DNA of 63,978 bases, the filler included, from Nemertoderma westbladi (taxonomy: Eukaryota; Animalia; Xenacoelomorpha): assembly GCA_032718475.1 (NCBI GenBank). It is 3 parts of 3 records of this genome, joined end to end, with 100 filler letters (N's around TTAATTAATTAA, not from the genome) between each part and the next. Parts side by side here need not be neighbours in the genome. Positions count along the whole stretch, not along the records: positions 28,752 to 57,581 come from JAUCBJ010000353.1; 2 more parts are not named here. One strand, written 5' to 3'. The notes below the pieces were generated by a model. That model saw nothing but the letters and a program-made list of their open reading frames with translations, was not told the origin of the DNA and ran no database searches. Positions 11,783 through 57,681 of the stretch are shown here, piece by piece. Each line of letters begins with the position of its first letter. The first letter of the stretch is position 1. The position numbers and the translations under genes are program-made.

Positions 11783-11834
11783 CATTTTCAGTTTGTGAAG
11801 GTAGGGTATTGTACCCATACCTTGAGTGTGGGGA

Positions 11835-26839: not shown

Positions 26840-28570
26840 TTAGGAGATACCGAACGAGTTTATAGAAGGTCCGTCTACGTGTGTTCTAGAACGCGCGCCT
26901 CTAACGGCAGAGCCCTGCACCGCTGATTGCACCTCGTCCATGAAGCTACCAAGATTAAGGACGCTGGTTGCGCCCAACAGTACGCGAACCCCAGAGCCGG
27001 AATTATTAATCGAATGAACCAGCAAACTCTCCTCGAACGTGCAGCCGCCTATTACGAATATAATGAGGTCCTGTGAGCGGTCGCGAGTCATTGCGTTACT
27101 TAGATATGGGTACACAGATTCCTTGAGCTTACCTTTGACAGCGGAGTCTATCACCGTAGCGATCCAAGGTTTGTGCTGTGTATAGATATTCTCGACGCCT
27201 TTCAACCCTTTAAACAACCGTTTGGTTATGTGAATCGGGTTCTCTGTGCCGAATAGGTCCGAGGACCGCACCCGGTGACCGCCGTATTCCAACACCGAGG
27301 CCGTGAGTCTAACCAAACCGGACTCGGAACCGTGGCGTCGCATCGCGTCTAACAAACCCGCGGAGTCGTTGTTAGTATGCCGCTCGTAACGCAGCTGGTA
27401 CAGCGAAACGAGTCGGCAGAAATTCGCGTGGGAGAGTTTATTAGCGGATATGAGCGCGCGTATCTTGTGGAGGGCAGCGGAATGGTCCCCGTGGCAGGCT
27501 AACTCCTGCTCAACCTCAGATACCTCTAAGAGATGGTTCTTCGCTATGAGTCGAGACAGTTCGCCCACTATGGTCACGTGTTTGGCCACTGTCCCGGACA
27601 TCTTTTTGAACTGCGGGTAGGTCTCAAGGAATGCTTTCATATCGCTTATAGATTCCACCTTCTGTTGGCTCTTCGATTTAACCTGGAATTCGTCCATAAG
27701 GGTTTTAATGTTCTGCGCGATTTCTCCGAAGTTTCCGTACATGTTTGCGGCGTAGAAATCGTCCTGGTCCGGGGAGAGAACGACTTCTTTGAGCTCCTTG
27801 GATACACCGGGGACGTCGCTAAGGTCGACTCGATTGTTACGGATACCAAGCAGCTCATGGACCATGGCCTGGTAGGTCCACTGGTTGAGTAACGGAGTCA
27901 CGACGTCCTCGCTGCGGTCCAACACTATGAGAACCGGCTCGGTCTCCGAGCGACGGAAGTCGAACAAACTCGGCTCCTTGTTGATTAAACTGCGCAGCGA
28001 TTCGGCTAGTCGTCTAGCAGTGTCCGAGGAGTTCTGGTAGCGGATGGCCGGACTGAGTTTTAGGGAGAGGAGAACCGCAGCGAGTCCTTGCGTCGCCCGC
28101 AGCAACGCGGCTGACTGCCACTGACTTCGGCCGCGGTAGCATCCGACTAGATTCAACGAGAACAAATGAGGCGCTGCGGCGATGAAGTCGCAGAAATATT
28201 CCGATACTTCGGAAATAACTTCATTTTCATCGGCTTCCGCTAAGAATTTAAGTTCGGTTTTACTGATGACATTGCTGAAGTAAAGGAAGTAACTGCAATA
28301 CCGCGGGCATTTAAGTTCATCCGCGAGGAGGTTTACGTTCTCGTCGGTTGGTCGGACAAACACAACTGCTTTGAGGTGTTTCATCGAGTCTCGTGACCGG
28401 TTATCGAGTTTCTCGAATAGGTATATTTCTTTCTGCAGCATTTCGGACTGTGGGTAGACCATGCTGACGATACTGGTAGTTTCTGTGTCCATAAGCAGCA
28501 CCTTCATCCCGGGTCCGGCCTCCCTAATCATTTTACTTATGTACATACGGACCGCAGCCACCGCATCCAT
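26840..28570 (-). CDS. VPS45: Vacuolar protein sorting 45 (Sec1/Munc18 family), intronless, 576 aa
   Basis: [58 protein letters not shown] motifs; full length. Confidence 0.97.
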
Positions 28571-28651: not shown

Positions 28652-28751
28652 NNNNNNNNNNNNNNNNNNNNNNNNNNNNNNNNNNNNNNNNNNNNTTAAT
28701 TAATTAANNNNNNNNNNNNNNNNNNNNNNNNNNNNNNNNNNNNNNNNNNNN
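28652..28751. other. Artificial assembly spacer (44 N + TTAATTAATTAA + 44 N)
   Basis: Exactly 100 nt with a six-frame stop linker; identical to 57582-57681. Confidence 0.97.
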
Positions 28752-29090
28752 CGAATAAACCGCATCGGCCATCTTTACTCCGCGCTCGGGAGTCAGCTCT
28801 ACAGTATCCGGACTACTGGAGCTGTCAGGCCGCTGAGAAATAAGTTCTCGGCTCGAGTGTTGCTGCTGTTTAACAGCTGCTTCTTGGTCCCGCTTGACTT
28901 GAGCCAGAGTGCCTATGATAGACCTACGGTGTTCTACTAGCCTAGGGTCTGACACTACTACTGTAGGGATGACCTTTCTTACAATAGGAGGGGTCTCAGA
29001 CCTCGGTCTGGGATTCTCTATACTCCTATCTGAGAAACAGACTGTTGTTTCTAGGAGACTATCTGACAGAGTTTGCTTTGTGTCAGCCAT
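28752..29090 (-). CDS. gag: Gag N-terminus of element 3 (partial)
   Basis: IVRKVIPTVVVSDPRLVEHRRSIIGTLAQVKRDQEAAVKQQQH nearly matches ORF 42069. Confidence 0.85.
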
Positions 29091-32000
29091 GTTTGATTGT
29101 ACAGTTGAATGCCTACTGCTATATTACAGTTAAAGCAAGTCTAGTAATTCAGTATCACTGTTAGCCTAGTAATTAATTACCGATATCGTTACTCCATGTA
29201 ACGTGATATATATACAATATATTAGAATACCGGTATACACTTATAGTATATATAAGTATTATTACAGACTAGGTTTGTCACAGAATACCGGTATATAATT
29301 TCAGCACAAATATATAAATATATAATAGGCCTATCGTGAATACCGGTATACAACTCACACTCATAGTATATATATAAGTATAATTATAGACTAGAATTAA
29401 TTACAGAATACCGGAATATAATTTCAGCACAAATATATAGAATATATAATAAGCCTATCGTGAATACCGGTATACAGCTTACACTTATAGTGTATATATA
29501 TAAGTATAATTATAGACTAGAATTAATTACAGAATACCGGTATATAATTTCAGCACAAATATATAGAATATATAATAAGCCTATCGTGAATACCGGTATG
29601 TCAATTATTCTAGAATAATTGAATTTCTGAATTTTAGGGGTTACTTAGTTACTTTACTTTACTTTATTACCGTTATTTAAGCAGTAGTCCAACTGATATT
29701 TAGACCTAATTGTTGTATGACAGGCCTACTATTTTATAAATCGGTTTGAGTTGATTTATAATATATATACCCGTTTAATGGGTTTTTGTCAATATTTGAA
29801 ATAAATGTTATTATTTCTGGGAAGGAGTCACTGCACAGAAGCTGTACGCTCTCAGTGAAGTGCTACTTATTGGACACTAAAACAAATAATTCTACTTGCC
29901 TAAGTTACTTATTACTACAAATTACGTACAATACGGGGTGAGATTACAATCTCTAAATAAACACAAAAATTACACGTACGAATTTTTAGGGTAATTTTAC
30001 AAGAAGTCTACAAACCAGCCTAACAAAGGGTTAGAATATCTGGTTATTACAAACGGACAGGATACTACGGTATTTGAAAATAATAAAGCAGTAGTAAATA
30101 TACTGCGTTGTCCAGATAGGAAAAATACCACCGTCTGACGACTTATAGCCGTAGCGCTATAAGTACTACGTTATGTATCACGGAGTGTTCCTACCTAGAA
30201 GTTAATTACCGCGGCCTACCAGAGCCAACGTGCCTATTAACCACTTTACAACACAAATATACTGCCTACACACTAATTAACTTCGGAAAGCACTGTACAC
30301 TAAACCCTAAATTAGGTACAAGTACTTATACAACAAATAATCGCAGTTAAAATACTTGTACAGCTAAAAGAACCACGGTATCTGCCGGAGTGACCAAAGC
30401 ATAAAATCTCCAGTCTTTACCTACGCCAAACAGCCCTGATGTAGTACCGGGGTTAATTTAACTATAACGGTATATATAACAAGCACAATTACTGTAGGAA
30501 TAAACTTGGGGTATGAATGTTGCGAATAATCGCATAAACTCTGAATAATAAATATTACGCTACCCTTACAGACTACACAAACAAAATACAGACCAAACGC
30601 TGGCAGACTACTATCAAGCCTAAATAAACTACAGTATATGCAGACTCCGAAATGGTTAGTTAGTATGCGTTCTAACCGAGTAGTACGACTTATTCTTTCG
30701 GGGGGATTTACCTTACAGCACTGGATGCCCACCACATTCCTAACTAGTACTTTATCGGACATACACTCTACACACACTGCAATCTCTTCAGACTCAACAA
30801 CAGTCAGACAACAGTCCAGCCTACAAATTACCTGTACAATCTGAGCAGGCTTACACGCCTTCTGCTCAATATTAACCTACAAATAAATAAAACTGACAGA
30901 AATAAGTAAACCATACAAAGGAATAAGGGGTGATCAATCCCTAATCCCCTAACAGCCTACAATATACAATATATCACAATCGAAATAATACTGGTGTACC
31001 TGTACTGCTGTAAGTACCGGTTCGGGTGGTTAGGTAGTTAGGCCTATTGGTTACCGGTCAACCGGTACTTTTGCCCTTTTATTGCCTACGTGCAATAAAG
31101 AAGCTATAACTGTTATTGTTCGCGCTTTTAGACCTTTAGCAGTTTAACCTGCCAAATTTAGGTGTCTTCTAGGTTATAAATCGACTTTAGCCTATGACAA
31201 GTATTTGATTCACATAAAACTACATTAGCCGAAGCCAGCCTATGCGCGACCATTCACCCGCTGGATTTACCCGGGAGACTGGATTCGGAAGCTCTGACCT
31301 TATTGCGGTGTAGGCCTACTGTACTATTCGATTGATCGTTAATATATAATCTCTGACAAATATTATTCACTTTCGGGAAATATTAACAGTTCCTTTAGGA
31401 CGTGGCGCTCTAAGTATGTAAACAGAGTTATGACTTACACTAAACACAACGGGATGGCTAATGATTCACGTATAAAGCGCATTCTTTAGGAGATGCTTTG
31501 TTATCTATCACACTCATGCACACTACCGCACAATGCTGCACACCGATCTGCCGACCTTCACTAATTTTAATCATATATAAGGAGAACAGCAACTGATACA
31601 TGTAGGGTCTATGAAATAGCATTCAATTCACTCCAAAACCAATATAAGGTAAGTCGCAATTGCTATCTGTAACCGGTCTCTCTAACCTTCAGTATATCAA
31701 GAAGATTGGGGTTTTCTGATTATTTATCGATATTCTCCAAATATAACAATATTCCATCAACTGATACAATTAATATCCGACAGTAAAAGCAGTAAAACAA
31801 TGCGGTGAAAGCATAATGCATATGTACTGAGTTGGTTTGATAACAGTTATACGTTTCTATGATCAAAGCCTTCTAATGTTTGGCTAAAGTCTGAAACACA
31901 GAATAATTCCACAGCCGGTGTTCTAGGCTTAGGAAAGATACACACTGACTGAATTGCGTGAGTTTCTATATGCACTGTCCAACACAAAGAAAATCGCTCT

Positions 32001-32274
32001 GATTGGTCGAGTGAGCCGAACAAAGAAAAAGTTACACGTGGACATATCAGCTGATAGATGTCGTCATCGGAACTACACTGTATCAACAGTATTTTGGTGT
32101 ATTGCGACATAAAATCGCTAGTTATGTCCGCTAAAGTACACATACAGAAGAAATGGCTTTTTATGTCCACTAAAACACCTGTACAGTAAGGAAACGGCTT
32201 TTTATGTCCGCTAAAACACCTACAGAGTACTTTGCGGGGGAAAATAACTAGCTAGATCCGCAAAAGCCTTTACA
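28752..32274 (-). mobile_element. BEL/Pao element 3 (relative of element 2): 5' LTR 32274-31117, 5' UTR and gag start; truncated by the gap
   Basis: LTR TGTAAAGGC...AAAGCGCGAACA is homologous to the element 2 LTR; the UTR is colinear with 39805-42068; the Gag N-terminus is clearly homologous to ORF 42069. Confidence 0.9.
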
Positions 32275-35903: not shown

Positions 35904-37346
35904 TTAATCGCCGTTAAAAAACACGACAGTGGCGGTTATATCGTCTCGACTCCACCGAACTAGATCGGTCGGTAGGTTGAGCAACTCGGCGACTCGGGTG
36001 GACCTGTAGACGCCGTCCTCCGACTGGCCGAGAGCCTGACGGATGAGATGGGTGGCCGCGTTGCGTTCCTCCCCGCGGCGGTTCAGCACCCGCACCCGAT
36101 CGATCAACCGGTTGTTAACCTCCCCGATAGTCAGCCCGTCCGGCCGGAACTCCGTCTGGCCCTGCCCCTCCAGGAACTCCCCGACCAACTGGACCGCCCG
36201 CTCGCCGCTCATAAACTCCCACAAACCGTCGGACGCGATCACTAGGAACTTATCCCGGGATCCCACTTCGATCTCGCTGATCTCCGGGGTCGCCGTTAGA
36301 TACGGCGGGGTGTGGTAGTTGCTAGGCACCAACCCGTTGGTATTCAACGCCGCTTGGATCCCTAGCAACGTGGATTTACTCCACTTATACTTGACATCCC
36401 CAAAGGACCTTAAAGGCGCCAACTGCCCTAACAACCTCCCGTTCTTTATCAACGTGCTTTCTTCGTTCGGGTGGTCCAGTTGGAGGCGGTTGACTTCATC
36501 CCGATTCTCGGCGTTGTGATCCCGAGTTAATCCGGTGGCCACCCACCCGCCGTCCTCCGTACGGGAACCCAGTACCGCCCTGCAGTCGCCCACATTGCCG
36601 ACATGCAGACGACCCGACTCGGTCGCTAACACGATACAAGCGCAGCTTCCCGAGTAGGCCGTCTTCAAGTAGTCGATGTTAAAGTTTCCCGATTCGTTGG
36701 GCGTCGCTTCCGAACTAATATCGGCGTCCAACGAATCTACTGCAGCGAGGATCGAGTTGGAATGCGAGTCAGGTTGTTCGGAGTCGATTCGCTCTACTAA
36801 ACGACGAATTAAACTCTCTAGAAATACCGTTGAATGTTTTATATCGTAGAATTCTCGCGGGTGTATAAAGTCCTTTATCAGTAGGTTGTGCAGATCCGAT
36901 AAATGAAAGTGTTTACTTATTTCTCTGTGGATTTCCTTTAGTCGACTCCTCGGCAGGAGAGACAGAGCGATATAAGCGAATAATCGTTCGGAGACAGTTT
37001 GAGCGCAACCCCAACCTCCATGCCCATCGAACACGCCGAATAAATAATCGTTAGAGTCGAGCAAGGCGGCCTCCCTGCGTCGGTCCTCGATTGGGTTGTT
37101 GGCGGCGAGTTGGTTGGAATGGAAACCCGCCACAATCCCGGGGGATCCAGTGACCTCCTCGCATTCGTTGGAGCGAAGGATTTTGGATATTTGATCGGAT
37201 GTGAGTTGGTTGCGAACGACGCTCTGTTTGGATTGGAAATGAGAGATTCGGGATCGCTGGTGTTGGAACAGACGCGGCGACGTTTTTAATAGGGGCTTCG
37301 AAAAATAGTTTAACATTAGAGAATTAATTTGAGCGATCTGTAGCAT
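35904..37346 (-). CDS. PDP1: Mitochondrial pyruvate dehydrogenase phosphatase catalytic subunit (PP2C/PPM family), 480 aa
   Basis: Transit-peptide-like N-terminus; SNQLAANNPIEDRR, GVFDGHGG, NVGDCRAVLG, RLLGQLAPLRSFGD, TPPYLTATPEI, ASDGLWE, RDDIT. PDP1 versus PDP2 cannot be resolved. Confidence 0.93.
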   Translation of the reverse strand: MLQIAQINSLMLNYFSKPLLKTSPRLFQHQRSRISHFQSKQSVVRNQLTSDQISKILRSNECEEVTGSPGIVAGFHSNQLAANNPIEDRRREAALLDSNDYLFGVFDGHGGWGCAQTVSERLFAYIALSLLPRSRLKEIHREISKHFHLSDLHNLLIKDFIHPREFYDIKHSTVFLESLIRRLVERIDSEQPDSHSNSILAAVDSLDADISSEATPNESGNFNIDYLKTAYSGSCACIVLATESGRLHVGNVGDCRAVLGSRTEDGGWVATGLTRDHNAENRDEVNRLQLDHPNEESTLIKNGRLLGQLAPLRSFGDVKYKWSKSTLLGIQAALNTNGLVPSNYHTPPYLTATPEISEIEVGSRDKFLVIASDGLWEFMSGERAVQLVGEFLEGQGQTEFRPDGLTIGEVNNRLIDRVRVLNRRGEERNAATHLIRQALGQSEDGVYRSTRVAELLNLPTDLVRWSRDDITATVVFFNGD

Positions 37347-37615: not shown

Positions 37616-38569
37616 GCCGCGTATTCCCAATCCTTACACTAGTAGGAACACATCTTGAATTGACGCTTGGGATTGGTTAATGAGCTATATTTTGATTGGT
37701 CGTTGAAATCATGTAAGGAATGGAGAGAGGGGGTCGAACTACAGTAGTGTAAGGAGTTTATACTCTGTTGATAGGTAGAAAGTGTTCCAAACGCTGTAAG
37801 GAATGGAGAAAGAGGGTGAAATCATGTAAGGATTATCTGCCTATTAAACGGTTCATTGTCAGGTAACAGTAAAAATATATACGAATAACAATATACAGTA
37901 AATTTATTCAGTGATATCGTTGTATAAGGAATCGTTTTACAGAGCATTCTCCATGATTTTTCTGATGGTGATGGAAGAGATTGTAATAATAGAGTAGCTT
38001 TATTGATAGTATTTACGATTTAAATTTATTAATTTGATGTTCATATTTAAAAGCATTTCACAATTTGTAAACATAAATATTCCAATGAAATAAACTCTTA
38101 ATTTTTCAAATGATGTTTAGTATTTGTTCGATTTACATTTATGTTTATCGACAGGTTTCTGCGGCGCTTTTTAGCGCGTTAAGACATATCAAGTACCATC
38201 AGGTCAGCCAGCAGGCATCTGTTTACTTCTTCTTGTAAGAGCTACTCGTCGGCGCGCTAGTGCAGTTGGCTGTACACGAATAGCAAATAGACTATTCCTA
38301 AGCAAACCTACAGTGTAACACTTGAACTCTGTGTAAAAAGGAATGTATCCCTACAGTAGACCCTAGTAGTCAATGTTCCAATTGTTTCAGCACTAGCAAA
38401 CCAGGCGCTCTTACGCGCGTCTGGGGGCCAACTAACAATATAATAATATGTTCGCAATAAATTATTAAAAAGGCAATTTGTCAAGCGCTCAACTGCAGAT
38501 GTACACTACTGTATAACTAAAAAGTCATTCAGGTTGCCAGATTTCCCAGGAACTTACTGTAATAGACAT

Positions 38570-39804
38570 TGTAAAAGCTTCTGTGGGATATAACTGGCCC
38601 CTTTTGCTTCGCAATCCAGTTTCCCCCCAGGCGCTGGAATACTCTAAAAAGGTTCTCAAACTGTATATATATTCCCCTCGCCCGCAAGGTACCGTTACAG
38701 GTGTTTTAACGGACATAAAAGTCATTCTGCTATATACGTGTTTTGGCGGACATGGTAAGGCAAAAAACCTGTAATGCACCAACTACCTTTCATAGCTTAG
38801 CCGTGATGATTCATATTACGACATCTAACAGCTGGTTGCTGACATGGAAACAGCCATTGGACGCACGGTTCTTTGTTTGGCTTGAGCCAATCAGAGCGAT
38901 TTTTCCTGTCGACGTGTAGCTTTTCAGCCGATCATAAGGAGAGTGTTCAGTCTTACTGCTTTTACTTGATACTTTGTTGTTATTGCTGTCTAAGCCAGAA
39001 ACACCGGCTTTTTGGTAAGAACTCTAGTAAACTGCTTAGATTATAGAAAGTATAACTGTTACCGGCGGTGTTACCTCACTTAATTTAACTGCACTAATCA
39101 TATTGTTTGTACTGCTATTTACCGTCAGTTATTAATTGTATCTATTTGTTGATGGAAATATTGCTCTTTGGAGAATACGGATAAATCACCCAAAAATTCC
39201 CAATTTTCTTGATACACTACAGGTTAGAGAGGCGGGCTATATATAACAATTGCGATTTATATCAATGTGGTGTGTATTGAATCTAATGTTATTTAGTAGA
39301 CACTACCTGAGTCAATTGCTGTGCTCTTTATGTGTGATCAAATATACTGACGGTCGGCAGAATAGTGTGCATGATTGTGAGTGTGATGTGACTGGTAACA
39401 AAGCATTTCCTAAAGAATGCGACTTATACTTTAATCATAAGCCTTATCGTTGCGTTTAGTATAAGTCCTAGCTCTGTTTAAATAGATAGAGCGCCACGTC
39501 CTAAAGGAACTGTTAATATTTCCCGAAAGTTAATAATATCTGTCAGAAATTAATTATTAGTGATCTATCGAATAATACAATAGGTTTACACTGCAACCTT
39601 ACACTGCAATAATAAAATCTAAGCATCCGAATTCAGCCTCCCGGGTGTAGATCCATCGGGTGAATGATCGCGCATGGGCTGGCTTCGGCTAATGTTTTGT
39701 TTATTAGCATAAAATATTGTCGTATGCTAAAGGTGTGTTAATTAACTAAAAGACATATAAATTTTGGCAGGTTAAACTGCTAAAGGTCTTCAAAAGCGCG
39801 AACA
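38570..39804 (+). repeat. 5' LTR of element 2 (1235 bp)
   Basis: Direct repeat of 49105-50274. Confidence 0.95.
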
Positions 39805-42068
39805 GTAACAGTTACTTTGTATTGCAGTGTAAGCATTAAATACAGTTTAATACTGTTCTGTCGAACAGTAACAGTTATTATCTTATTGCAGTAGGCAATA
39901 AGGTTGCAAGTGTAGGCATTAAATACAGTTTAATACTGTTCTGTCGAACAGTAACAGTTAGCTTGTATTGCAGTGTAGGTATTAAATACAGTTTAATACT
40001 GTTCTGGCGAACAGTAACAGTTTATAATCTTATTGCAGTAGGCAATAGGGTTGCAAAATACCGTAGTGACTGGTAAAACTGAACCGGTACTTTGTAGGTC
40101 AGTAGGCCTAACTGTCATCACCGGTACCGGTACTGCTGTACAAGTACATTTAGTATTATTCGATTTTGATTATTGTATACCGGTAGGTCTCGATATTAAA
40201 TCGGGGACGCCTGGTTTTTATTGGGATTTTACTTAGGTCTATTTCTGTCAGTTTTATTTACTAGTAGGCTAATATTGAGCAGAAGGCGTGTGACCCTGCT
40301 CAGATTGTTCAGATAATTGTAGGCTGGGCTGCTGTCTGACTGTTGTTGAGTTTGGAGAGATTACGGCGTGTGTAGAGTTTGTCTGATAAAGTGCCGTTAG
40401 TAAGTTGGGGCAGCCATATGCTGAAGGTCAATCCCCTCTTAAAGAATAAGTCGTACTACCGTGTTAGAACGCATACTAACTAACAGTTTCAGAGTCTGCA
40501 TATACTGTAGTTTATTTAGGCTTGATCGTAGTCTGCCAGTGTTTTAGCCTGTGTTTGTTTGTGTGGTCTGTTCAGGTACCGTAATAGTTATTACTCAACT
40601 AATTTGTAGGCTGGATTGTTGTCTAGCTATTTTTAGGTCTGAAGGGATTACGGCGTGTGTAGAGTTTGTCTGATAAAGTGCCGTTAGTAAGTTGGGGCAG
40701 CCATATGCTGAAGGTCAATCCCCTCTTAAAGAATAAGTCGTACTACCGTGTTAGAACGCATACTAACTAACAGTTTCAGAATCTGCACATACAGTAGTTT
40801 ATTTAGGCTTAGTGGTAGTCTGCCAGCGTTTGGTTTGTATTTTGTTTGAGTATTCTGTACGGGTAGCGTAATATTTATTATTCAGAGTTTATGCGATTAT
40901 TCGCAACATTCATGTCCCCAAGTTTATTCCTACAGTAATTGTGCTTGTTATACATACCGTTATAGTTAAACTAACCCCGGTACTACATCAGGGCTGCTTG
41001 GCGTAGGTAAAGACTGGAGATTTTGTGCTTCGGTCACTCCAGCAGATGCCGTGGTTCTTTTAACTGTTCAAGTATATTTAACTACTGATTATTTGTTATA
41101 CCGGTACTTGTACCTAATTTAGGGTTTAGAGTACAGTGCCTTCCGAAGTAATTAGTGTAGGCAGTATTTTTGTGTTGTAAAGTGGTTGATAGGCACATTC
41201 GTTAGCTCTATTAGCTTCCGGGTAGGAACAATCCGTGATACATAACGTAGTACCTATAGCGATACGGTTATAGGTCGTCAGGCGGTGGTATTTTCCTATC
41301 TGGACAGTACAATATATTTACTACTACTTATTATTTAAATACCGTAGTACCCTGTCCTTTGTAATAACCAGAATCTAACCCTTTGTTGGACTGGTTTGTA
41401 GACTTCCTGTAAAATTACCCTAAAAATTTCGTACGTAATATTTTGTTGTGTTTAATTAGAGAATTAATCTCACCCGTATCGTAAGTAATTTGTAGTATTA
41501 AGTAACTTAGGTAAATTAGAATTATCAGTTTTAGTGTCAAATAAATAACACTTCACTGAGAGCGCTCAGCTTCTGTGTAGTGACTTCCCCAGAAATAATA
41601 ACATTTATTTCAAATATTGTCAAAACCCCCTTTAAACGGGTATATATCTATTATAAATCAACTCAAACGATTTATAAATAGTAGGCCTGCCATACAACAA
41701 CTAGGTCTCACTGTCAGTTGGACTACTGCTTAAATAACGGTAATAAAGTAAGTTAAAGTAACGAAGTAACCCCAAAATATTCAGAAATTCAATTATTCTA
41801 AAAATAATTGACATACCGGTACTTACCATAGGCTTATTATATTTATTTCTATAAATTTGAGCTAAAATTATACCGGTACTCTGTGACAAATCTAGTCTGT
41901 AATAACACTTATATATTATAAGCATACCGGTATTCTAATATTGTGTATATATCACGTTACACTGGGTAACGGTACCGGTAATAAATCGCTAGGCTTGCGG
42001 TCATACTGAATTACTAGACTTACTTTAACTGTATTTATAGCCGTAGGCATTCAACTGTGTAAACAAAC

Positions 42069-45000
42069 ATGTCAGATTCAACCAAATCACTGTCAGATAG
42101 TCTCTTAGAAAGTGTTAGAATGAGTATTAGACTTAGACAGCGTATTAAAAGGATCCGTGACCAAGATCCAAGTATAGAACATCCTAGATCCAAGTCTAAG
42201 TCACCTACTATTGTAAGAAAGGCCATCCCTACAGTAGTAGTGTCAGACCCTAGGCTAGTAGAACAACGTAGGTCTATCATCGGCACTCGGGCCCAAGTCA
42301 AGCGGGATCAAGAAGCAGCTGTCAAGCAGCAGCAACATCCTAGCCAAGAACCTAGTTCTCAGCGGCCCGATAGCTCCAGTAGTTCGGATACTGTTGAGCG
42401 GACGCCCGAACGCAGAGCGGAGATGGCGGATATGGTTTATGATGAGCGGCCAACCTATGAAGAATCAACCGACGCCACTTCTTCTCAAGTAGAAAGCGAG
42501 GTGGAAAGCGAAGTGGAAAGCGAATTAACAGCAGCAGAGAAGCCGCGAACTAGAGACGCCATTGACATATATCTGTCAGACTATCAGCGATTCATAGGAG
42601 ACGAAGAGTTGAGGAGACGACTGTCTGGACTTCGCCCTAATAGTGAAGGAACCAAGCTTGTGTTGGACGCAATCGATGCGGAAATGTTAGCTGTAGAACA
42701 AGCTAAATGTGATGAAAAACTCCGCCTCGTTAGAGTCCAAGAAGAACAAATAAAGAAAAGAAGGATAGAGGAACAAAAGGCGGCGGCTATGGCGGAGGCA
42801 AAGGCAGTGGCAGAAGCAGAAAGGAGAGCATTTGAGCAGACTGCTCAACTGGAGTTGGAGAATCTGCAAGAGACACAAGACAGTATAACTAAACAGTTTA
42901 CTGCTAATCAAATGCAGATGATGAGAAAATCTACTCCCAAGCGCCAGGGGTACACATCCTCGGAGGAAGGCGATACTACCGACCCTGAAGGCGGAGGAAA
43001 TAGATCCCATCTAAGTAGACGTAGAAAAACATATTACCGTCGCAAATTGCCTGATTTGCCCCCAGCTGTTAAAAGACAGCTAACTAGCACAGATTTAGGT
43101 AGTGCAGAACCCATGGAACAATTTATCCAGGTCAAAAGACTCCCTACTATAGTCGATGAACCTGAAATAATTAGGCCTGTTGTTCCCAAAGTCACTTCTG
43201 TGCTAGAGACCCCTACACTTCCAGAGCTTAACCCTAAATTCCCTTTACATAGTACTACACTGCCTGTACCCGGTGGAACAGTCCATGCAAATACCCCTGT
43301 CCAGATAGCAGAGAGAGAAATCAATAATTTGTCTCCCGTCGTCCCGCGTCAGCCCGCTACTATGTTGGCGACTCCCGCTTCGGCGGTTGAGTGGGTGGAA
43401 GAGGGACGGCGGGGGATGAATCTCCTGCTAGGACAGATGCAGGAGACTGTCCACCAACTTAAGGGAACAGTGAGGGAAGGTAGAGCAGAGTTGCAAGAAG
43501 TGCAGCAAAGTATCGCGCTAGAACGCGACAAATTAGTCAATATACAAAAAGGCATACCAATGCCCCCTGTAACACTGTGTCAACCCGTTAGGTCTGAAGT
43601 ATTACATGAGCAAGGTGTGGAGCCTACACGCATCTATACTGCTAGTGAAGTTGAAACTCCTATAGCAAACCCTATTAAGGGTGATTATAGACCTGTTATT
43701 AATGATATTCCCTATAGACCTGATAATGATCCGAGAAATTTATATACAGATAATTCGATATTAAATAACACGATGGTCCAAGAAAGCTTTACGCGTCAGA
43801 TGGCTAGAACAAAAGCCCGCCAAGCGGTCAAAGTGGGAGAGATCGTCAAATTCAATGGAGATGAGATGAAATGGTTACCTTTCAACGAATATTACAAAGA
43901 TAGCATACAGAACTCTGTACTATCTAACGGAGAGAAACTTAGATTCCTCATCAAGTGCTTGGAAGGACCTCCCAAGTTAATGGCGTTAAAGTTTATTGGA
44001 CATCCAGATGGATTGAGACAAGTTTGGGATACACTAAACATCAGGTATGGTAACAAGGATAACATAGCTAAGTATTTGTATGCCAAATTAGTAGCCCCCC
44101 GACACTTCCTTAGTAGCGAGATTATAGAGTTTTCCGATGAAATTCAAGAGATCTGTAGACAACTGGTCTGGTTAGGTAAGTCGCATGAATATCAGAGTTC
44201 CATGGTTATTGGAGCCGTAGTCTCTACTTTACCAAAGGGTGGAGTATGTACACGCTGGGACAAGAAAGTGTTGTACATGAATGAACAACAACGACGAAGT
44301 CCTACCATGGCTGATCTCATGTCTTTCTTAGATAGTGAAGTAAAATTACAACTCATAAGGCAGGCCAGAGAGAAAACATCGGAAAATAAGGTAAGTGAGA
44401 AACCCGATTCTAGGAGAAGGATAATACCAGTGTGTTATACTGACGACGGCGAAAGCCAAGCTTCTCAAGAAGAGGACAGCGGGAAAGACACCGAACGATC
44501 TTACTATGACAACAAGACCTATAAAGACGTAAGTAAATACAAGTCTCGAACCAGTGACAGGAGAGAACAGGTAACAACAACTCCTCCTACGTCTCCTAAG
44601 AGAATTCACGGAAGAAAGCCCGAAGAAAGAACGAGAGTGCAGAACGTTAACCAAGTTAAGGTGAGTAACATCAAACCAAAATGTGCGCTGTGCGACGGGC
44701 CCCACCGTTTGAGTGCGTGTGCAGAATTCCTAAAGAAATCCATGGCAGATAGACGTGGAGTCCTGTGGGATAAACGGTTATGTTATAACTGTCTCAGACG
44801 CGGACACCAGCGGCGAACCTGTTACTCTGACGCAAGGTGTGCTAAGTGCGGCGCGAAACATCATAGCTTGTTGCACACGGAATTCGAACGAAACAACCCT
44901 AGTCAGGTAAGTGAGCCCAAATCACATGTCCAATTCAGTGATGTGAACGACACTGACCAAAGTTCTGAGTGGGAAGGATTCTATACGGACGAATTCTCCG

Positions 45001-46112
45001 ATGCCAACGAATCCTGTTACCTAATAAATACCGCAGTGTATCGAGCACTTACTTACGAAAAGGACATCAACGATGAGTTTCCCCCAACTACTTTCGCCAA
45101 ACAACCATCTTGGAAAGCTCCAGCTTCCAACGTAGGAATCAGAGAATTTCCTGTAGTTCAAGTAAGAGTTCACGGTCTTAACAAAAGCTACATAGTGAAC
45201 GCCCTCCTTGACTCCGGCAGCACAGGAACATTCATCGATCAAGAACTAGCCGAAGATATCTTTGCTGGACAACCCAAATTCCAAACTAAGTTGAATATGT
45301 CCGGAATTATGCAGGTTTGGAAATCTACCATAACGGCAGATTACTATGTAGGTGCGTTGTCCACCCCCCAGGATAAATTAGGAACACAAGGTATAAGGTC
45401 AGTAAAAATGGTGGCCATAAAGAACTTTGCTACTACTCAAGCAGAACCTTATAACTGGGACGAGGACGAGTGCATCCAACATCTTGAGATACCTCGATTC
45501 CAAACCGATTATCCTGGAGTGCAAATCCTCATCGGCCAAAACGCGCATGAGGCGCTCGAGACATTGGAGAAACGGCCTGCTCAACCGCAGCCATTACAAA
45601 CTTATGCGGTAAGAACTAGAGTAGGTTGGTACTTCACTGGCCCTTCCCGTAGAACTCTCAAAGAGAGATTACCTCAACAACAGGTATACCAAGTAAAGGG
45701 GGAAGTGGATAGCAGTGATGTGGACGACCCAACTGAGGGAACACCATACTCCTCAGATAATGACGATATTAACTCCAATGTAGATCAATGGAGACATTGC
45801 CTTGGGACGATTAATCCAGCCGACACCGCTTCCAGAGGAGCAACTCTTCAAGAACTGATAGATACTCCAGGCTGGTTAGGTGGACCCTACTCCCTAAGTA
45901 AAGAAGAAGATGAATGGCCTCCTCATCTTACCACTGAGGAGATTAGACAGGCCAAGGGAGCGGAGGAAGTAACACGACAGCCTAATCGCCCAGCTGGTCG
46001 CTTAGGTTTACTGGAAAGAGACCGAAAACTGTCCGGAAACCATGGAAGGCAGGATACTCTTCCTACGACCACTTCCCTAATTCGACAAAGATCTAGGGAC
46101 TCCATAACGTAA
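42069..46112 (+). CDS. gag: BEL/Pao Gag-protease fused in frame to an RNase H C-terminal remnant, 1347 aa
   Basis: KFNGD...EKLRFLIKCLEGPP...WDTLNIRYG; knuckles CALCDGPHRLSAC, CYNCLRRGHQRRTC, CAKCGAKHHSLLH; protease ALLDSGS (D at 45210); QWRHCLGTINPADTASRG...WLGGP from 45786. Confidence 0.93.
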   Translation: MSDSTKSLSDSLLESVRMSIRLRQRIKRIRDQDPSIEHPRSKSKSPTIVRKAIPTVVVSDPRLVEQRRSIIGTRAQVKRDQEAAVKQQQHPSQEPSSQRPDSSSSSDTVERTPERRAEMADMVYDERPTYEESTDATSSQVESEVESEVESELTAAEKPRTRDAIDIYLSDYQRFIGDEELRRRLSGLRPNSEGTKLVLDAIDAEMLAVEQAKCDEKLRLVRVQEEQIKKRRIEEQKAAAMAEAKAVAEAERRAFEQTAQLELENLQETQDSITKQFTANQMQMMRKSTPKRQGYTSSEEGDTTDPEGGGNRSHLSRRRKTYYRRKLPDLPPAVKRQLTSTDLGSAEPMEQFIQVKRLPTIVDEPEIIRPVVPKVTSVLETPTLPELNPKFPLHSTTLPVPGGTVHANTPVQIAEREINNLSPVVPRQPATMLATPASAVEWVEEGRRGMNLLLGQMQETVHQLKGTVREGRAELQEVQQSIALERDKLVNIQKGIPMPPVTLCQPVRSEVLHEQGVEPTRIYTASEVETPIANPIKGDYRPVINDIPYRPDNDPRNLYTDNSILNNTMVQESFTRQMARTKARQAVKVGEIVKFNGDEMKWLPFNEYYKDSIQNSVLSNGEKLRFLIKCLEGPPKLMALKFIGHPDGLRQVWDTLNIRYGNKDNIAKYLYAKLVAPRHFLSSEIIEFSDEIQEICRQLVWLGKSHEYQSSMVIGAVVSTLPKGGVCTRWDKKVLYMNEQQRRSPTMADLMSFLDSEVKLQLIRQAREKTSENKVSEKPDSRRRIIPVCYTDDGESQASQEEDSGKDTERSYYDNKTYKDVSKYKSRTSDRREQVTTTPPTSPKRIHGRKPEERTRVQNVNQVKVSNIKPKCALCDGPHRLSACAEFLKKSMADRRGVLWDKRLCYNCLRRGHQRRTCYSDARCAKCGAKHHSLLHTEFERNNPSQVSEPKSHVQFSDVNDTDQSSEWEGFYTDEFSDANESCYLINTAVYRALTYEKDINDEFPPTTFAKQPSWKAPASNVGIREFPVVQVRVHGLNKSYIVNALLDSGSTGTFIDQELAEDIFAGQPKFQTKLNMSGIMQVWKSTITADYYVGALSTPQDKLGTQGIRSVKMVAIKNFATTQAEPYNWDEDECIQHLEIPRFQTDYPGVQILIGQNAHEALETLEKRPAQPQPLQTYAVRTRVGWYFTGPSRRTLKERLPQQQVYQVKGEVDSSDVDDPTEGTPYSSDNDDINSNVDQWRHCLGTINPADTASRGATLQELIDTPGWLGGPYSLSKEEDEWPPHLTTEEIRQAKGAEEVTRQPNRPAGRLGLLERDRKLSGNHGRQDTLPTTTSLIRQRSRDSIT

Positions 46113-47736
46113 TTATATATGGAGTGGGTGTGTGACTATATTATTTTATATTTTTTTTTATTATTATTTTATATTTAGGTATGTATTATTATGTAATTTT
46201 ATTATAATCGTTTTCTTTAATTTTATTTAGTAGAATGTTATTTTAGAATATTTAGTAAATTAGTGCAATATATTAGTGTTTATTACGTATTTAATTACTT
46301 ACAATATATTTAGTGCGACGGCAAGAAATAATTATTTTTCTCTTTCCTTACTGTCCGTATTATATTATAAATGCGAGACTATAGTAAGATGACATGTCAG
46401 TACTTCTTAAAGTACAATAAAGCCACTACTATATTTAAGTATTATTGGTAGGCAGAGTATTAGGAATGCAAAGTTCAGATCCTCGTGTCTCGGCTAAACC
46501 AGGCTCTGGGTAGACCTTGGAAACGACTTGCCTCTTCACACTGACATTGCTTCGTGCGATATTGCTCTTCTACCTTATAACAAATAATACATATAGTAGC
46601 GTGATGTCCCTCTAACAGTAGCGTAAATCGCAAATAAATCTGTTAAACTTTTGACCATCTGTAATTCTAGTCGATTAAGATATCGTGGCACCCACCGATA
46701 TACTTGAAAGACAAATTCTAGAATCAGTGGTTAACGTCCCCAGACAAGTTCTGGAATAAATTGGTGCCCATCCTAAATATTAATTTAATATTTGTTAAAA
46801 TCTGTAAAATCCCGATCCTTTAAAATTTCTAGTCAATTAAGATATCGCAGTATTTACCGATATTCTTAGAAGGACTATTTACAGAATTAAGGATCCTGAG
46901 TCCCCAGATATGCTCTGGAATAAAATTTATGTCAATTTAATATCAAATAATAAAATTCACGGGAATAAATTTAAATTCATATTCGAATGAATTTCATAAA
47001 TTGCCATTTTGCGCAATTTACAACATTCCCAAAATTCCAGTAATTAATAGATCATGGGAGCGGAGATTCATATTGAGTGTATTAGAGTGTGAGAATCTCC
47101 AACATATAGTCAATAGCCGATAAAATTTATAAAATCATGCATAAAGAGGATATTGACAATTAAAGAATTACTATTAAATAACATCCCAGATCTGTATGCA
47201 TGAGGATTGCCCTAATTCTACCGCTAGTTTTCCATAATGTCACCATGGCAACACCCACGCTAGAATTAGAAGCAAGTTAAAAGAACAATAAAAGGCTTGT
47301 CCCATTGCGTAGCATAAGAGTATACATAGCGCACTATTAGTATCCAAGGATACATAGTAATAACGTGACATTCTGGAAGACAATGACTAACGGACAAAAT
47401 GGCTTGCATGTGTGCAGTAAGTAATGATTGTATGGAATTTGTGCGTTTATAGGTGAATGATACTACTAAAGTGTGTTTACAGTAGCTAATCGCAATTGTA
47501 AAGTAGCCTAACTCTACCGAGATAACCTCAAGTGGATTCAAGCCTTTGGGACGGACAGTGGTGGGACTTGTGTCGATTATCGTTGTCGTGCTGTTGCTAC
47601 ATGTTGGCGCAAACACCGCGACAACGGTACATCGGCGCTGAGAAACCCACTGTCCGGGGTCAAAGTCTAGTAGGCAGCGACGCCCGCTTGCCTAAATATT
47701 GACTCATACTAATATTAATAAACTCAAATAGCAGAT

Positions 47737-49026
47737 ATGACGGAATTAATAGAAGATGACCTTGGTATTAGAGAGCGATATACTCTACCTTTACAAGCGT
47801 TTGTGGATAGCTTGATACGCGGTGAAGCCGATCCGACTATTACGGAGGACGATGGTCGTTATATCGAACCGCCGATGTCCCAAGAGCAACTTACGCGTGA
47901 ATTGGACTATCGAAAATTAACCGCTCGCTATACGCATCGTAATGGTACGTATATGGACTTCTTAACTACCGGCCATCCTATCGATTTACATGATACGGAC
48001 GATGTAGACACCCTAAAGGGAAATGGTTCTATTTAAATATCATACCCAGCGGAGTCGTAACGATAAACCGAGAATAGATCACGAAAATTCTATTCGTAAC
48101 AGACTGGGAAGACGAACCAATATGCCTAGAATCTGAGGAGATTCAGCCTATCGCGCTCGGAACAGCGACAACGATTACATCCTAGAATGGTATCAAGGTC
48201 CACAGCGTCTCACTGCGTACGATTATCGCCATGCCAACTATGTTTCTCGGCAACGTTGTCGGTTATGCGCATCGAGAGACCATGTTACGCCCATGGACAC
48301 AAACGTCCGCTGTTCCTATTTCCACGAACAACCGGCGATGGAAATTTATTGAGCGTATTGCAGATTTAATAATTTGCATATTTTTACGGTTTGCCCTCAA
48401 TTTATGACTCAATGTCACCACTGTCACCACCATGGACACGCCAGTTTCGATTGCCCTTTTAATCGCGATTTGGAAAGCGTAGATGAAATGATCACACTAC
48501 GTTACATTAGAGCTTGGGAAGCGAACGCTGATTTACATCGTGATTCGCGCCATCGCTATTATCCTGGACGCGCTTACGAAGGAATTTATGCGTTCCATCC
48601 TTATCTATTCGCTTCTGTCGAACAGAAATCACGCATATCGAGTTACAGGAAGTATATCGACGGCCTTACGAGTACCGAGCCCGCGAACGCGAGTTGGAAA
48701 GAACCATTAAACCAAGGAAGTTTCTAACTGCCTATGGTCCACCCACGGCCCTCATTCAGACCACTCGTAAAGGACCCGTAAGAGCGGCTGTCTTGAAACG
48801 AGCTCTCAAAGCCGTTAGACCCCTCTCCCCCGACGTTGATGTCAATCAACTCGGCACTTCGACTGGCGGATACACCGACCATAATCCCATACCTTCTGAT
48901 GCAATCATATTGCACCCTTCACCCAGGAGTTATAGCCCTCCTCGTAAAGTGGCTCGCCCCAAAGAGAAAAGGACTCTGGCTAGCTTTAAAAAACTGCGTA
49001 AACGCCGTCCGCGCATGAAAGACTAA
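47737..49026 (+). pseudogene. Decayed accessory ORF (about 430 codons) with three CCHC-type zinc fingers and a basic C-terminus
   Basis: Reconstructed across a frameshift near 48015-48035, TGA at 48134 and 48350, and a frameshift near 48694-48727: CRLCASRDHVTPMDTNVRC, *AYCRFNNLHIFTVC, CHHCHHHGHASFDC; ends KKLRKRRPRMKD. Confidence 0.65.
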
Positions 49027-49104
49027 CTGTTTAGAGTATTTTCGTATTTGAGAAACTGTGATTTTGTATATTTTATAGACTTAAATCCCATTTTCTGGGA
49101 GCGG

Positions 49105-50274
49105 TGTAAAAGCTTCTGTGGGATATAACTGGCCCCTTTTGCTTCGCAATCCAGTTTCCCCCCAGGCGCTGGAATACTCTAAAAAGGTTCTCAAACTGTA
49201 TATATATTCCCCTCGCCCGCAAGGTACCGTTACAGGTGTTTTAACGGACATAAAAGTCATTCTGCTATATACGTGTTTTGGCGGACATGGTAAGGCAAAA
49301 AACCTGTAATGCACCAACTACCTTTCATAGCTTAGCCGTGATGATTCATATTACGACATCTAACAGCTGGTTGCTGACATGGAAACAGCCATTGGACGCA
49401 CGGTTCTTTGTTTGGCTTGAGCCAAACACTTTTACTTGATACTTTGTTGTTATTGCTGTCTAAGCCAGAAACACCGGCTTTTTGGTAAGAACTCTAGTAA
49501 ACTGCTTAGATTATAGAAAGTATAACTGTTACCGGCGGTGTTACCTCACTTAATTTAACTGCACTAATCATATTGTTTGTACTGCTATTTACCGTCAGTT
49601 ATTAATTGTATCTATTTGTTGATGGAAATATTGCTCTTTGGAGAATACGGATAAATCACCCAAAAATTCCCAATTTTCTTGATACACTACAGGTTAGAGA
49701 GGCGGGCTATATATAACAATTGCGATTTATATCAATGTGGTGTGTATTGAATCTAATGTTATTTAGTAGACACTACCTGAGTCAATTGCTGTGCTCTTTA
49801 TGTGTGATCAAATATACTGACGGTCGGCAGAATAGTGTGCATGATTGTGAGTGTGATGTGACTGGTAACAAAGCATTTCCTAAAGAATGCGACTTATACT
49901 TTAATCATAAGCCTTATCGTTGCGTTTAGTATAAGTCCTAGCTCTGTTTAAATAGATAGAGCGCCACGTCCTAAAGGAACTGTTAATATTTCCCGAAAGT
50001 TAATAATATCTGTCAGAAATTAATTATTAGTGATCTATCGAATAATACAATAGGTTTACACTGCAACCTTACACTGCAATAATAAAATCTAAGCATCCGA
50101 ATTCAGCCTCCCGGGTGTAGATCCATCGGGTGAATGATCGCGCATGGGCTGGCTTCGGCTAATGTTTTGTTTATTAGCATAAAATATTGTCGTATGCTAA
50201 AGGTGTGTTAATTAACTAAAAGACATATAAATTTTGGCAGGTTAAACTGCTAAAGGTCTTCAAAAGCGCGAACA
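49105..50274 (+). repeat. 3' LTR of element 2 (1170 bp)
   Basis: Matches the 5' LTR by eye except that 68 bp are replaced by ACA at 49426-49428. Confidence 0.95.
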
Positions 50275-51297
50275 GACATTCAATTTCATTGAATCCAGGG
50301 CAAGAGTTTGTGTTGTATCCTGTTAAAGGAGCTATCAGCTGCGTAAAATGTTATTTGGGAGAGAGACTTGGCAATTGGTGAAATCCATTCAACTGAATGG
50401 CACAGTAGAGAATTGATTCTGGGTTACAACTAATATGCAATCAATGACAAATTCTCGTTGATTTGCACACCGACGTCTAATAATTGGCTGGAGTGTGTTC
50501 GAGGGCAATGGATATTGAGCTCAACATGTTAAGATCTTACATATTCTTAATTATCTCGAGAATTAATTAATTAATTAACGTGTAACTTTCCTATTCCATG
50601 GCCGATACACATATAAACCACAACCACCATACAAAGTATCGTAGCGATTCACCGGAGCGTTTAGGCGGAGATAGAGCTATGACAAACATACAACATTGAT
50701 AATGACTAGCTAATGTCACATGCTGCTGCTTGCATACTCTTCTAATACTGTTGGTATAATAACCCTTACATGATTTCACCCATTTCTCCATTCCTTGCAG
50801 CGTTTGGAACACTTTGTCTCTACCTTTACAGTAAGTGAAACAAAACCCTTACACTAGTTCGACCCCTATCTCCATTCCTTACATGATTTCAACGTCCAAT
50901 CAAATAATAGTTTATTAACCAATCCCAAGCACCAATTCGTGATGTGTTCCTACTTGTGTAAGGATTTGGAATACGCGGCCGGGCCAGGGCAGTATTCGTT
51001 TCGACACGAATGCTTTAAAGGGACTAGTCACGGCGCATATCTTCCTTGCATCCTTAAAGCTAAATTAGTACTGGAGTTCCATCTGGGAAGTTTATTTCAG
51101 GGGGGACCGCACTGGAAAATAAGTCGTGTGTGTTGTTGTGCGTAATAATACCTGCCCTAACGGACGTATAGAAAACTTCACTTTACTTTAGAGAGATAGA
51201 TAGTTATACATTATGCAAAAACAATAACAATAACAAATACACCAAACAATGTAAAATACTACTAATAGGATCGACATGCTGCATTGCAGCTGCATTT

Positions 51298-53378: not shown

Positions 53379-55028
53379 TCACAGCTCATCACTTCTATCT
53401 CGACAGTTCTTCACGCCATCCCCAACCTTAGCGGCGTCAATACAAACACCAGAATCGTGACACTTGAATACCCTAGATGGATCTTCCACGTCACAACACG
53501 CACCATCTAGAGACATGTCTTTGCAATTATCTTTACCTTTGCACATCTTGTGGGTTGGGATGCATTTCCCCGTTTTAGGACAACGGAATTTACGACTTGC
53601 TTTGCAACAGGACGCTTCGTCACTCCCATCTTCGCAATCACTCGCTCCGTCACACAACTTGTTGTAAAAAATACATTCCCCGGATCCACAACGCCAGTTC
53701 TTCAACCCCGGGCACGGGCAATTCTTCTCGTCGCTGCCATCATTGCAATCGCTGACACCGTCGCAACGTTGATCAGTCAACACACATTGAATACCGTCGG
53801 CACATCGAGAGCCATAGGGAGATACACACGGGCAAACATCACCTTCATCGGAATTGTCACCACAATTATTTTCTTTATTGCATTTATCTCCCTTTGGAAT
53901 ACAATGACCATTATCACATTGGAACTCACCAGGTAAACAGTGGTTGCCTCCCTGTCGTACAGCTGTTTGACATTCTGAATTATCTTCTGGACAGACACAA
54001 TTACAATTCTTATCGATATACGATGGTTCTTCGCAGTGGATGTTCGCGTAATCGCAGTAGGTCCCGCAGTCTGGGTTATCCTCTGGACAAACACATTGGC
54101 AGTCTTCTCCGATGTAACCAGGGTATCGGCAGTGAACACTTTGCACATCGCAATCTCGTTCACATGGCGGATAACCTGGGGGGCAGTAGCATTGGCATTG
54201 GGTGTCTATAAATCCCGGCTCCAGACATCCGGTTTCCTCGGATCGTGGACATGTCCTTCCGCAATCAGCTCCTTCTGGACAAACACACTCGCAATTCTTA
54301 TCGAGGTAACCTGGTCGGTCGCAGACAACCGCATCAAAATCGCAATGCGATGCGCAACTGTACATGAGATTGATCTCCTTAGCGTCGTAAAAAGATAAAC
54401 CTCTCTTTGTCAGTTTGACAAATCCTTTTTGGCCAGGAGACATGGGAACTTTAGGAGTAAATTTTTTATTGACAACGGAATAGAAATCGTAAGGCAGATT
54501 GTAATTGTTTCCAAGGGCCTTAAGGGTACCAATTTCCTCGTAATTTGGTTTCACACCTTTGTATTCCATGTACATAAATCGTTCTCGGTCCAGCCGCTGG
54601 AATTCGTGCTTGAATCCCAGTAAATGGCCGACCTCGTGGAGGACATTGTTCTTGGAGTAACAACCTTTTGAAAGTGATAGTTTATTGATCCCCTCACTAT
54701 AACCTATTCTCGACCAGCACCCACCCTCGTTCACAAACTTTAGTTCCCCTTCGTAGCTCACTTGTGATAAAATATTACTCCTTTTTTTAACAAACTTTAT
54801 GCAGGATTTATCTTCTATCTCTTTAAATGCTCTGCTTATTAACAATTTCCTCCTCGCAGTAAAGACTTGCGATCTGGTGTAAGAATAGGGTATTACGACA
54901 ATTGGGTGTTCTTCCGAACTCAAACTGTATTTCGGCCAACGCTTGTCCATGTCTACAACACCTTTGCCTTGGACTTGGAAAACGAAACCACAAAGCATTA
55001 CTAGCGAAACGGTTATTGTGACACTCAT
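53379..55028 (-). CDS. Secreted astacin-like metalloprotease with four EGF-like Cys repeats and five LDLa repeats; intronless
   Basis: Signal peptide from ATG 55028; GCWSRIG; HEVGHLLGFKHEFQRLDR; C..PG[YF].D..C.C.CP repeats; CDG.SDC.DGSDE repeats. The Met-turn is degenerate. Confidence 0.9.
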   Translation of the reverse strand: MSVTITVSLVMLCGFVFQVQGKGVVDMDKRWPKYSLSSEEHPIVVIPYSYTRSQVFTARRKLLISRAFKEIEDKSCIKFVKKRSNILSQVSYEGELKFVNEGGCWSRIGYSEGINKLSLSKGCYSKNNVLHEVGHLLGFKHEFQRLDRERFMYMEYKGVKPNYEEIGTLKALGNNYNLPYDFYSVVNKKFTPKVPMSPGQKGFVKLTKRGLSFYDAKEINLMYSCASHCDFDAVVCDRPGYLDKNCECVCPEGADCGRTCPRSEETGCLEPGFIDTQCQCYCPPGYPPCERDCDVQSVHCRYPGYIGEDCQCVCPEDNPDCGTYCDYANIHCEEPSYIDKNCNCVCPEDNSECQTAVRQGGNHCLPGEFQCDNGHCIPKGDKCNKENNCGDNSDEGDVCPCVSPYGSRCADGIQCVLTDQRCDGVSDCNDGSDEKNCPCPGLKNWRCGSGECIFYNKLCDGASDCEDGSDEASCCKASRKFRCPKTGKCIPTHKMCKGKDNCKDMSLDGACCDVEDPSRVFKCHDSGVCIDAAKVGDGVKNCRDRSDEL

Positions 55029-57581: not shown

Positions 57582-57681
57582 NNNNNNNNNNNNNNNNNNN
57601 NNNNNNNNNNNNNNNNNNNNNNNNNTTAATTAATTAANNNNNNNNNNNNNNNNNNNNNNNNNNNNNNNNNNNNNNNNNNNN
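57582..57681. other. Artificial assembly spacer
   Basis: 44 N + TTAATTAATTAA + 44 N. Confidence 0.97.

Follow-up and report, generated by a model that had tools for sequence, protein, structure and literature searches.

The window analysed here is a 63,978-nt stretch of DNA from Nemertoderma westbladi (assembly GCA_032718475.1), in which three BEL/Pao-type retrotransposons with long terminal repeats (LTRs), termed elements 1, 2 and 3, were recognised by self-comparison. In all three of the recognised LTR elements the primer-binding site (PBS) behind the 5' LTR is complementary to 10-12 nt within the LTR of that same element, and these non-autonomous BEL/Pao elements are likely to be self-primed instead of tRNA-primed.

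Element 2 (38570-50274, plus strand) is bounded by an LTR pair and the 5-bp target-site duplication (TSD) GACAT, found at 38565-38569 on the left and 50275-50279 on the right. Its 5' LTR (38570-39804, 1235 nt, TG...CA) shows 1 mismatch over 1170 aligned nt to the 3' LTR (49105-50274, 1170 nt), which is without 65 nt matching 38894-38958 of the 5' LTR, and a polypurine tract lies at 49097-49104. The single open reading frame (ORF; 42069-46112) encodes a BEL/Pao Gag bearing DUF1759 and zinc knuckles along with a protease motif, and then a short segment of late Pol; it is without reverse transcriptase (RT) and most of Pol, making the element non-autonomous. The polypurine tract is preceded by 3 kb of non-Pol sequence (46113-49096), in which a 160-codon frame (48544-49026) gave no Pfam match. 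Element 3 is a minus-strand relative of element 2, with a gag start 78% identical. It has a single LTR, the 5' LTR (31117-32274, minus strand), which over its 3' 720 nt shares ~77% identity with element 2. The end of this LTR was placed by its homology to that of element 2, 28 of the 30 columns just before it being identical. The leader and gag start (28755-31104, minus strand) run into an N-run (28652-28751), so that the truncation may be an assembly gap. This N-run is one of two 100-nt stretches in the window, the other at 57582-57681, each composed of 44 N, 12 letters and 44 N. Element 1 (3095-12663, plus strand; TSD TGACC at 3090-3094 and 12664-12668) represents a separate family, its Gag-protease being ~23% identical to that of element 2. 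The 5' LTR (3095-3921, TG...TA) is inserted in a 16-bp satellite and differs from the 3' LTR (11835-12663) by 1 mismatch; of two overlapping ORFs (6925-11030), the second encodes a BEL/Pao Gag-protease, with no RT. Elements 1 and 2 thus each have an LTR pair with 1 mismatch, a 5-bp TSD and a purine tract. The satellite array flanks element 1 on both sides (1832-3094 and 12664-14000), and both of its LTRs terminate in TA, not CA, the LTR end bearing an inverted repeat of 9 bp.

The BEL/Pao identity assigned by a first-pass annotation of this DNA was supported at the protein level. DUF1759 scored above cut-off in elements 1 and 2, and among 23 protein matches, most of them with PF05380/PF18701, the best were BEL/Pao polyproteins. 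This placement is based on Gag-protease only, RT and integrase being absent from the window copies, for which reason the elements are filed as non-autonomous derivatives. Like Belpaoviridae, the window elements have a DUF1759 Gag, zinc knuckles, a protease, LTRs of 0.8-1.2 kb, a 5-bp TSD and a polypurine tract. Unlike the Belpaoviridae profile of the International Committee on Taxonomy of Viruses (ICTV), in which the PBS is 18 nt long and complementary to host tRNA-Arg or tRNA-Gly (PMC8742986), they are without a tRNA PBS, RT or integrase, and no such 18-nt site was found in them. The window elements are not members of the Tf1/sushi group, which is defined by a Ty3/gypsy chromovirus Pol and a chromodomain, their proteins matching BEL/Pao. 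In Gag-protease trees of 52 and 28 rows, rooted on insect elements with no true outgroup, elements 1 and 2 were sisters on long branches (FastTree 0.97-0.99; ultrafast bootstrap 95).

The first-pass annotation had also claimed that the PBS of elements 2 and 3 is complementary to their own LTR, and this was borne out, as were the positions and letters of the sites apart from one pairing length. In element 2 the PBS (39805-39814, plus strand) is flush with the LTR end and the candidate self-primer lies at 39053-39062, with its 3' end at 39062. Directly behind the LTR stands the first PBS copy, GTAACAGTTA, all 10 nt of which pair with 39053-39062. The complementarity reported earlier is present, and its length of 11 nt holds only for a second tandem PBS-like copy starting at 39868 (11/11), base 39052 (A) facing a C in the first copy. 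In element 3 recomputation reproduced the 12/12 match between the PBS (31116-31105, minus strand, flush with the LTR end) and the candidate self-primer in its own LTR (31851-31840). The annotation did not extend to element 1, in which a PBS (3926-3937) placed after a 4-nt T spacer is 12/12 complementary to a candidate self-primer at 3587-3598 whose letters are unrelated to those of elements 2 and 3; the same relation recurs in many metagenome families described below. A TGG, as expected of a tRNA-type PBS, is absent directly after the 5' LTR of elements 2 and 3, as the earlier account had noted for element 2.

The LTR site is a conserved island, with 10 of 11 columns the same in elements 2 and 3, and conservation falls to 12 of 30 columns directly past the predicted primer 3' end. 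The concerted change noted previously at the LTR edge, from a C:G pair in element 2 to T:A in element 3, is real. The element 1 PBS matched the LTRs of elements 2 and 3 over 6-7 nt only, with no cross-pairing. The earlier caveat that near-palindromy might produce the match did not hold, since the longest same-sense match between PBS and LTR in elements 2 and 3 is just 5-6 nt. A chance match of short, AT-rich near-palindromes is a very remote explanation, and one largely refuted by the counts. The motifs are indeed short, and scanning loosely for contiguous matches, with the LTR ends left free, was noisy and yielded many of 10-12 nt, for which reason matches were counted only where an LTR end was readable. 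Once TSD or homology set the LTR ends, however, the observed match length was reached by only 7/3000 dinucleotide LTR shuffles for element 2, 2/3000 for element 3 and 12/3000 for element 1, and the pairing recurs across families. The boundary of element 2 is independent of the hypothesis because it is fixed by the TG...CA LTR pair and the TSD GACAT. Among 13,711 pseudo-junctions in the window, 0.63% reached 10 nt and 0.26% reached 12 nt.

Three further tandem copies of the LTR end with PBS-like sequence follow the element 2 PBS (39862-40056; PBS-like starts at 39868, 39951 and 40014), and folding of the repeat region (39799-40056) predicted a local hairpin that can hide the later copies. In contigs of four sequencing runs over 38500-40300, the element 2 family was high-copy and diverse, and lower contig depth together with skipping joints suggests that the tandem copies are absent from most family members. 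At least two additional post-LTR variants in these contigs start ATAACAG (among 40 of 198 variant rows), and none of the 15 joints listed, out of 17, lies at the primer site.

The comparison was extended to 75 metagenome loci retrieved with the BEL/Pao polyprotein P0006, one of the window-protein matches; none of them showed DNA similarity to the window. Long-range repeats in 18 loci gave pair-defined LTR ends for nine families, and in none of the nine did TGG follow these ends. In these relatives the LTR partner of the PBS starts right behind a pyrimidine-rich AG, while the remainder of the complement ends an upstream exon before GTRAGT. Halves bounded in this way indicate that the primer site of the LTR is interrupted by a GT-AG intron, the removal of which completes the complement. 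A reading of the AG ahead of the sites as an initiator was abandoned once the matching donors and a spliced contig emerged. The split matches totalled 11 nt in L016, 15 in L034, 14 in L044, 14 in L029 and 11 in each of L019, L048 and L013, and for six pair-defined families the split score was equalled in 0-4 of 1000 shuffles. A scan independent of LTR ends was possible for 42 loci, the other 33 of the 75 being without a usable 5' region, and gave split matches of at least 11 nt in 11 of the 42 loci (6 families) as compared with 28 of 1680 shuffles; the remaining 31 scanned loci were without a split match, and in many of them the LTR or the PBS lies off the contig.

A total of 21 LTR ends were readable, comprising 8 pair-defined ends, 10 set by eye and those of the 3 window elements. 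TGG was not present within 0-5 nt of any of them (0/21, covering 18 metagenome loci and the window elements), which extends the absence of a tRNA-type PBS seen in elements 2 and 3. Pairing of at least 10 nt with the own LTR was found at 19 of the 21 ends, 11 of them split and 8 contiguous, with 2 misses. For the metagenome loci alone, 16 of 18 pair with their own LTR at 11-15 nt, and 11 of 18 have a GT-AG intron in the partner. Cross pairs of at least 10 nt numbered 6/420, all six between close kin, in a comparison set without a canonical tRNA-primed BEL/Pao element with LTRs as negative control. In each of the 19 matching cases, pairing begins 0-5 nt past the LTR end. Of the 11 split cases, 9 have 4 nt on the exon-1 side and 8 have 7 nt on the exon-2 side. 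The predicted primer end is AC or AT in 17/19 and is followed by C in 15/19, and elements 2 and 3 obey both. A single compensatory pair, on the exon-1 side, distinguishes L048 from L027.

Both the split and the joined state were observed among these loci. In L044 an exactly spliced junction exists near the 5' end, preceded by 83 nt of upstream sequence, with a 117-nt GT-AG intron in the 3' LTR; the spliced form may derive from RNA or from an intron-less copy. The loci L001, L002 and L005 carry 11 nt joined, and their close relatives L003 and L026 have near-identical halves split by an intron. The joined sites probably reflect precise intron loss, contigs of spliced RNA being the other possible source, and in the tree they occur nested among split families. 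Neither a split match nor an intron in the site was found in elements 1-3. Two LTR motifs had no match in metagenome and viral contigs, and BEL/Pao protein searches of viral contigs returned no relatives. A further LTR intron with a like donor and acceptor layout is present in L041 (6054-6126), where the PBS is off the contig.

Self-priming is established for Tf1/sushi elements, as documented in PMC4600332, PMC5341516, PMC6934838 and PMC3601003. In Tf1 the PBS is bound by the 5' part of the RNA, which derives from the LTR and is cut by RNase H, and the fragment primes the minus strand (PMC7175516, accessible part), the PBS being flanked in a "pretzel" by two helices with LTR sequence (PMC10085805, accessible part). 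In the mechanism proposed here, transcription of the window elements would start upstream of the LTR site, probably ~100 nt upstream in elements 2 and 3, and the LTR-derived 5' part of the RNA would fold onto the PBS, which would be kept open by a helix on either side. An autonomous relative would provide an RT in trans, and its RNase H would then cut just 3' of the paired stretch; the resulting 3'-OH would prime minus-strand DNA through U5 and R. The LTR intron splits the candidate primer in most of the relatives studied, where it would exist only after splicing; the window elements carry it ready-joined, likely after intron loss. Such loss is read from the difference in state among close relatives, not within the window family. 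Self-priming overall is judged quite likely. It is about an even call whether the fuller history holds, namely a large and old BEL/Pao branch without tRNA, in which the spliceosome builds the primer from two LTR exons and window-type lineages fixed the spliced primer by intron loss.

Like Tf1, Tf2 and Tj1, the window elements are without a tRNA PBS and have ~11 nt of their own LTR complementary to the PBS. Unlike Tf1 they belong to BEL/Pao, not Ty3/gypsy, their primer is probably internal and not the first 11 nt, and the primer of their relatives is split by a spliceosomal-type intron, which is not described for Tf1 in the portions of those sources available. Self-priming has also been predicted for the plant Tcn1 clade and for copia TAR elements, on the criterion of at least 10 bp of pairing with onset 0-5 bp after the LTR (PMC6317226, available text). 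Elements 1-3 satisfy this same criterion as do the copia TAR elements Houba and Osr-1 and Tcn1; those belong to other superfamilies, and an intron-split primer is not mentioned in the accessible text on them. No description of self-priming or of a splice-built primer in BEL/Pao was found in the literature searched, subscription papers, supplements and Repbase reports lying outside its scope. The term "self-prim" is absent from the BEL/Pao surveys PMC554778, PMC3118150, PMC6238403, PMC8556966, PMC8220671 and PMC2774666, term searches of PMC3118150, PMC554778 and PMC6238403 brought up no treatment of the PBS, and the available portions of PMC13524379, PMC3286476, PMC8220671 and PMC2582038 refer to tRNA PBSs only.

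Non-standard primers occur in other animal LTR elements. Cer7 of C. elegans has an element-encoded tRNA-like primer, and Oikopleura Tor elements use spliced-leader RNA. The window elements resemble these in having a non-standard primer and differ in that the complement lies inside their own LTR, in place of a separate tRNA-like or host RNA.

Promoter words bear on where the transcript begins, their spacing being used to infer the start site. A candidate promoter of element 2 (38887-38951, plus strand) consists of a CCAAT word at 38887 and an initiator-like TCAGT word at 38947; element 3 has CCAAT at 32006 and TCAGT at 31952, with spacing as in element 2. The words thus lie ~155-166 nt (CCAAT) and ~97-106 nt (TCAGT) upstream of the site in elements 2 and 3, which suggests a transcription start well before it. 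The 65 nt present only in the 5' LTR of element 2 contain the initiator-like word. These positions bear on a rival with which our reading shares the self-priming core and from which it differs only in start site and history: in the strict Tf1 geometry the site would be the very 5' end of the transcript, would never have borne an intron and would have arisen independently. The lack of any split match or pyrimidine-rich acceptor beside the site in elements 1-3 fits this geometry, as do the zero spacer of elements 2 and 3, the pretzel-like flanking helices, the start of the element 1 site within an initiator-like TCATT word, and the position of the window elements on a long branch outside the split clade. 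However, primer length and end signature are the same as in split families, the CCAAT and TCAGT words lie well upstream in elements 2 and 3, and joined sites are nested among split families. The strict geometry as a whole is considered rather unlikely, and the site as RNA 5' end is probably wrong. An internal primer is preferred because the homologous site of the relatives spans an exon-exon junction, because that of L044 has 83 nt upstream and because of the upstream CCAAT and TCAGT words; given self-priming, an internal ready-joined primer appears about twice as likely as a strictly 5'-terminal one.

Folding with the PBS held open predicted flanking helices on both sides of the PBS in elements 1-3, a likeness to Tf1 (as known from the accessible account of its pretzel) that is here one of prediction only. 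Helix A of element 2 joins 39598-39611 on the plus strand to 39820-39833 just after the PBS (14/14, all contiguous pairs) and is retained with changed letters in element 3 (LTR strand 31290-31316, minus strand); shuffles were equally stable in 3/200 cases for element 2, 0/200 for element 3 and 14/200 for element 1, helix A being significant in elements 2 and 3. Helix B before the PBS, formed in element 2 by 6 bp between 39668-39673 and 39796-39801, is invariant in element 3 and not significant on its own there or in element 2, reaching significance in element 1 only. A predicted U5 hairpin (39762-39785, plus strand) is near-invariant between elements 2 and 3. For folding of the site to the PBS, primer-PBS pairs had predicted probabilities of 0.77-1.0 in element 3, and in element 1 these were 0.52-0.97. 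A strongly conserved structured LTR stretch with a C-UUCG-G hairpin is also present in elements 2 and 3 (39618-39696 and, on the minus strand, 31287-31222). A ribozyme-like reading of the conserved LTR hairpins was unsupported: an Rfam scan of 28000-51000 with E up to 10 gave 3 weak chance matches, none inside the LTRs.

Such structure could mean that the pairing is an element of the leader RNA, serving packaging, dimerisation, translation or splicing control, and that another RNA primes. Dimer signals are near-palindromic, as are the window PBS motifs, and the LTR of elements 2 and 3 is richly structured, with several conserved hairpins. A purely structural role is nevertheless improbable: in 19/19 matches pairing begins 0-5 nt past the LTR end, where a primer must sit, its length centres on the 11 nt of Tf1, and a PBS of tRNA type is absent. 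Several families have a PBS that is not palindromic, and PBS self-dimers are weak (-0.7 to -6.4 kcal/mol, as compared with -9 to -12 for the LTR duplex). Priming might also fall to half of a host tRNA or to another small host RNA, the LTR match being secondary. At its core, CT-GTT-A, the element 2/3 site is similar to a tRNA-Asn anticodon loop, and the comparison of the PBS covered element LTRs. Half-tRNA PBSs are known from plant copia elements (PMC6317226, available text). Against this, PBS letters vary by family and always track the own LTR, even across exon-exon junctions, which a fixed host RNA could not do, and priming of this kind is judged still less probable than a structural role. 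Together with chance, these two explanations are jointly unlikely.

Several observations weigh against self-priming in the form proposed. Its support consists throughout of sequence comparison and prediction. Ten of the 18 metagenome LTR ends were placed by eye with the pattern in mind. L053 is a miss, with 6 nt only; L046 pairs over 7 nt with its own 5' copy and over 11 nt only with the related L016 LTR; and L055, whose end is repeat-defined and stands outside the count of 21, has 7 nt and no match. In some copies just one of the LTRs has a change in the donor or in the primer half (L046 at ~785 and 7886, L034 at ~840), so that single copies can miss the pattern, and in L062, a family copy of L046, both splice sites are intact. 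In the tree, elements 1 and 2 branch as the sister group of all split families and are not nested among them, with an ultrafast bootstrap of 91 only. Only one covarying primer pair is visible in the element 2/3 family. Unconstrained folding gave element 2 a pairing probability of 0.0 between primer and first PBS copy, the predicted duplex being only 10 bp (-10.6 kcal/mol), and flanking helices were significant in none of 8 metagenome families (p 0.1-1.0). No tRNA gene was found in the window.

The complementarity in the window elements is real, and self-priming in BEL/Pao is likely on comparative grounds. BEL/Pao would then be a third superfamily with self-priming, against the textbook and ICTV picture of tRNA priming, and a self-primed branch would explain many animal BEL/Pao elements without recognisable PBS. 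Elements of this kind would escape control by tRNA supply and tRNA fragments, and annotation tools would gain a simple new PBS rule. The intron-split primer of the relatives, if true, would connect splicing with reverse transcription in a new way, with splicing as a licence for replication. It would also pose a puzzle, the 5' LTR copy having to be spliced and the 3' copy having to keep the intron for inheritance, for which the intron-less window elements offer a natural comparison. The window itself appears to contribute the intron-less, pretzel-like form, with zero spacer in elements 2 and 3, in a deep-branching lineage and in two unrelated families.

In addition to the retrotransposons, the window encodes four host genes, each as a single uninterrupted ORF covering the Pfam model: VPS45 (Sec1/VPS45; 26840-28570), a PP2C-type phosphatase (35904-37346), an astacin with LDL-receptor repeats (53379-55028) and STT3 (59524-62025). 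An intron-poor animal genome, for which this one window is the basis, would fit intron-less LTR primers. The encoded VPS45 shares 58-63% identity with that of many animals, the closest being those of molluscs, annelids and nemerteans.

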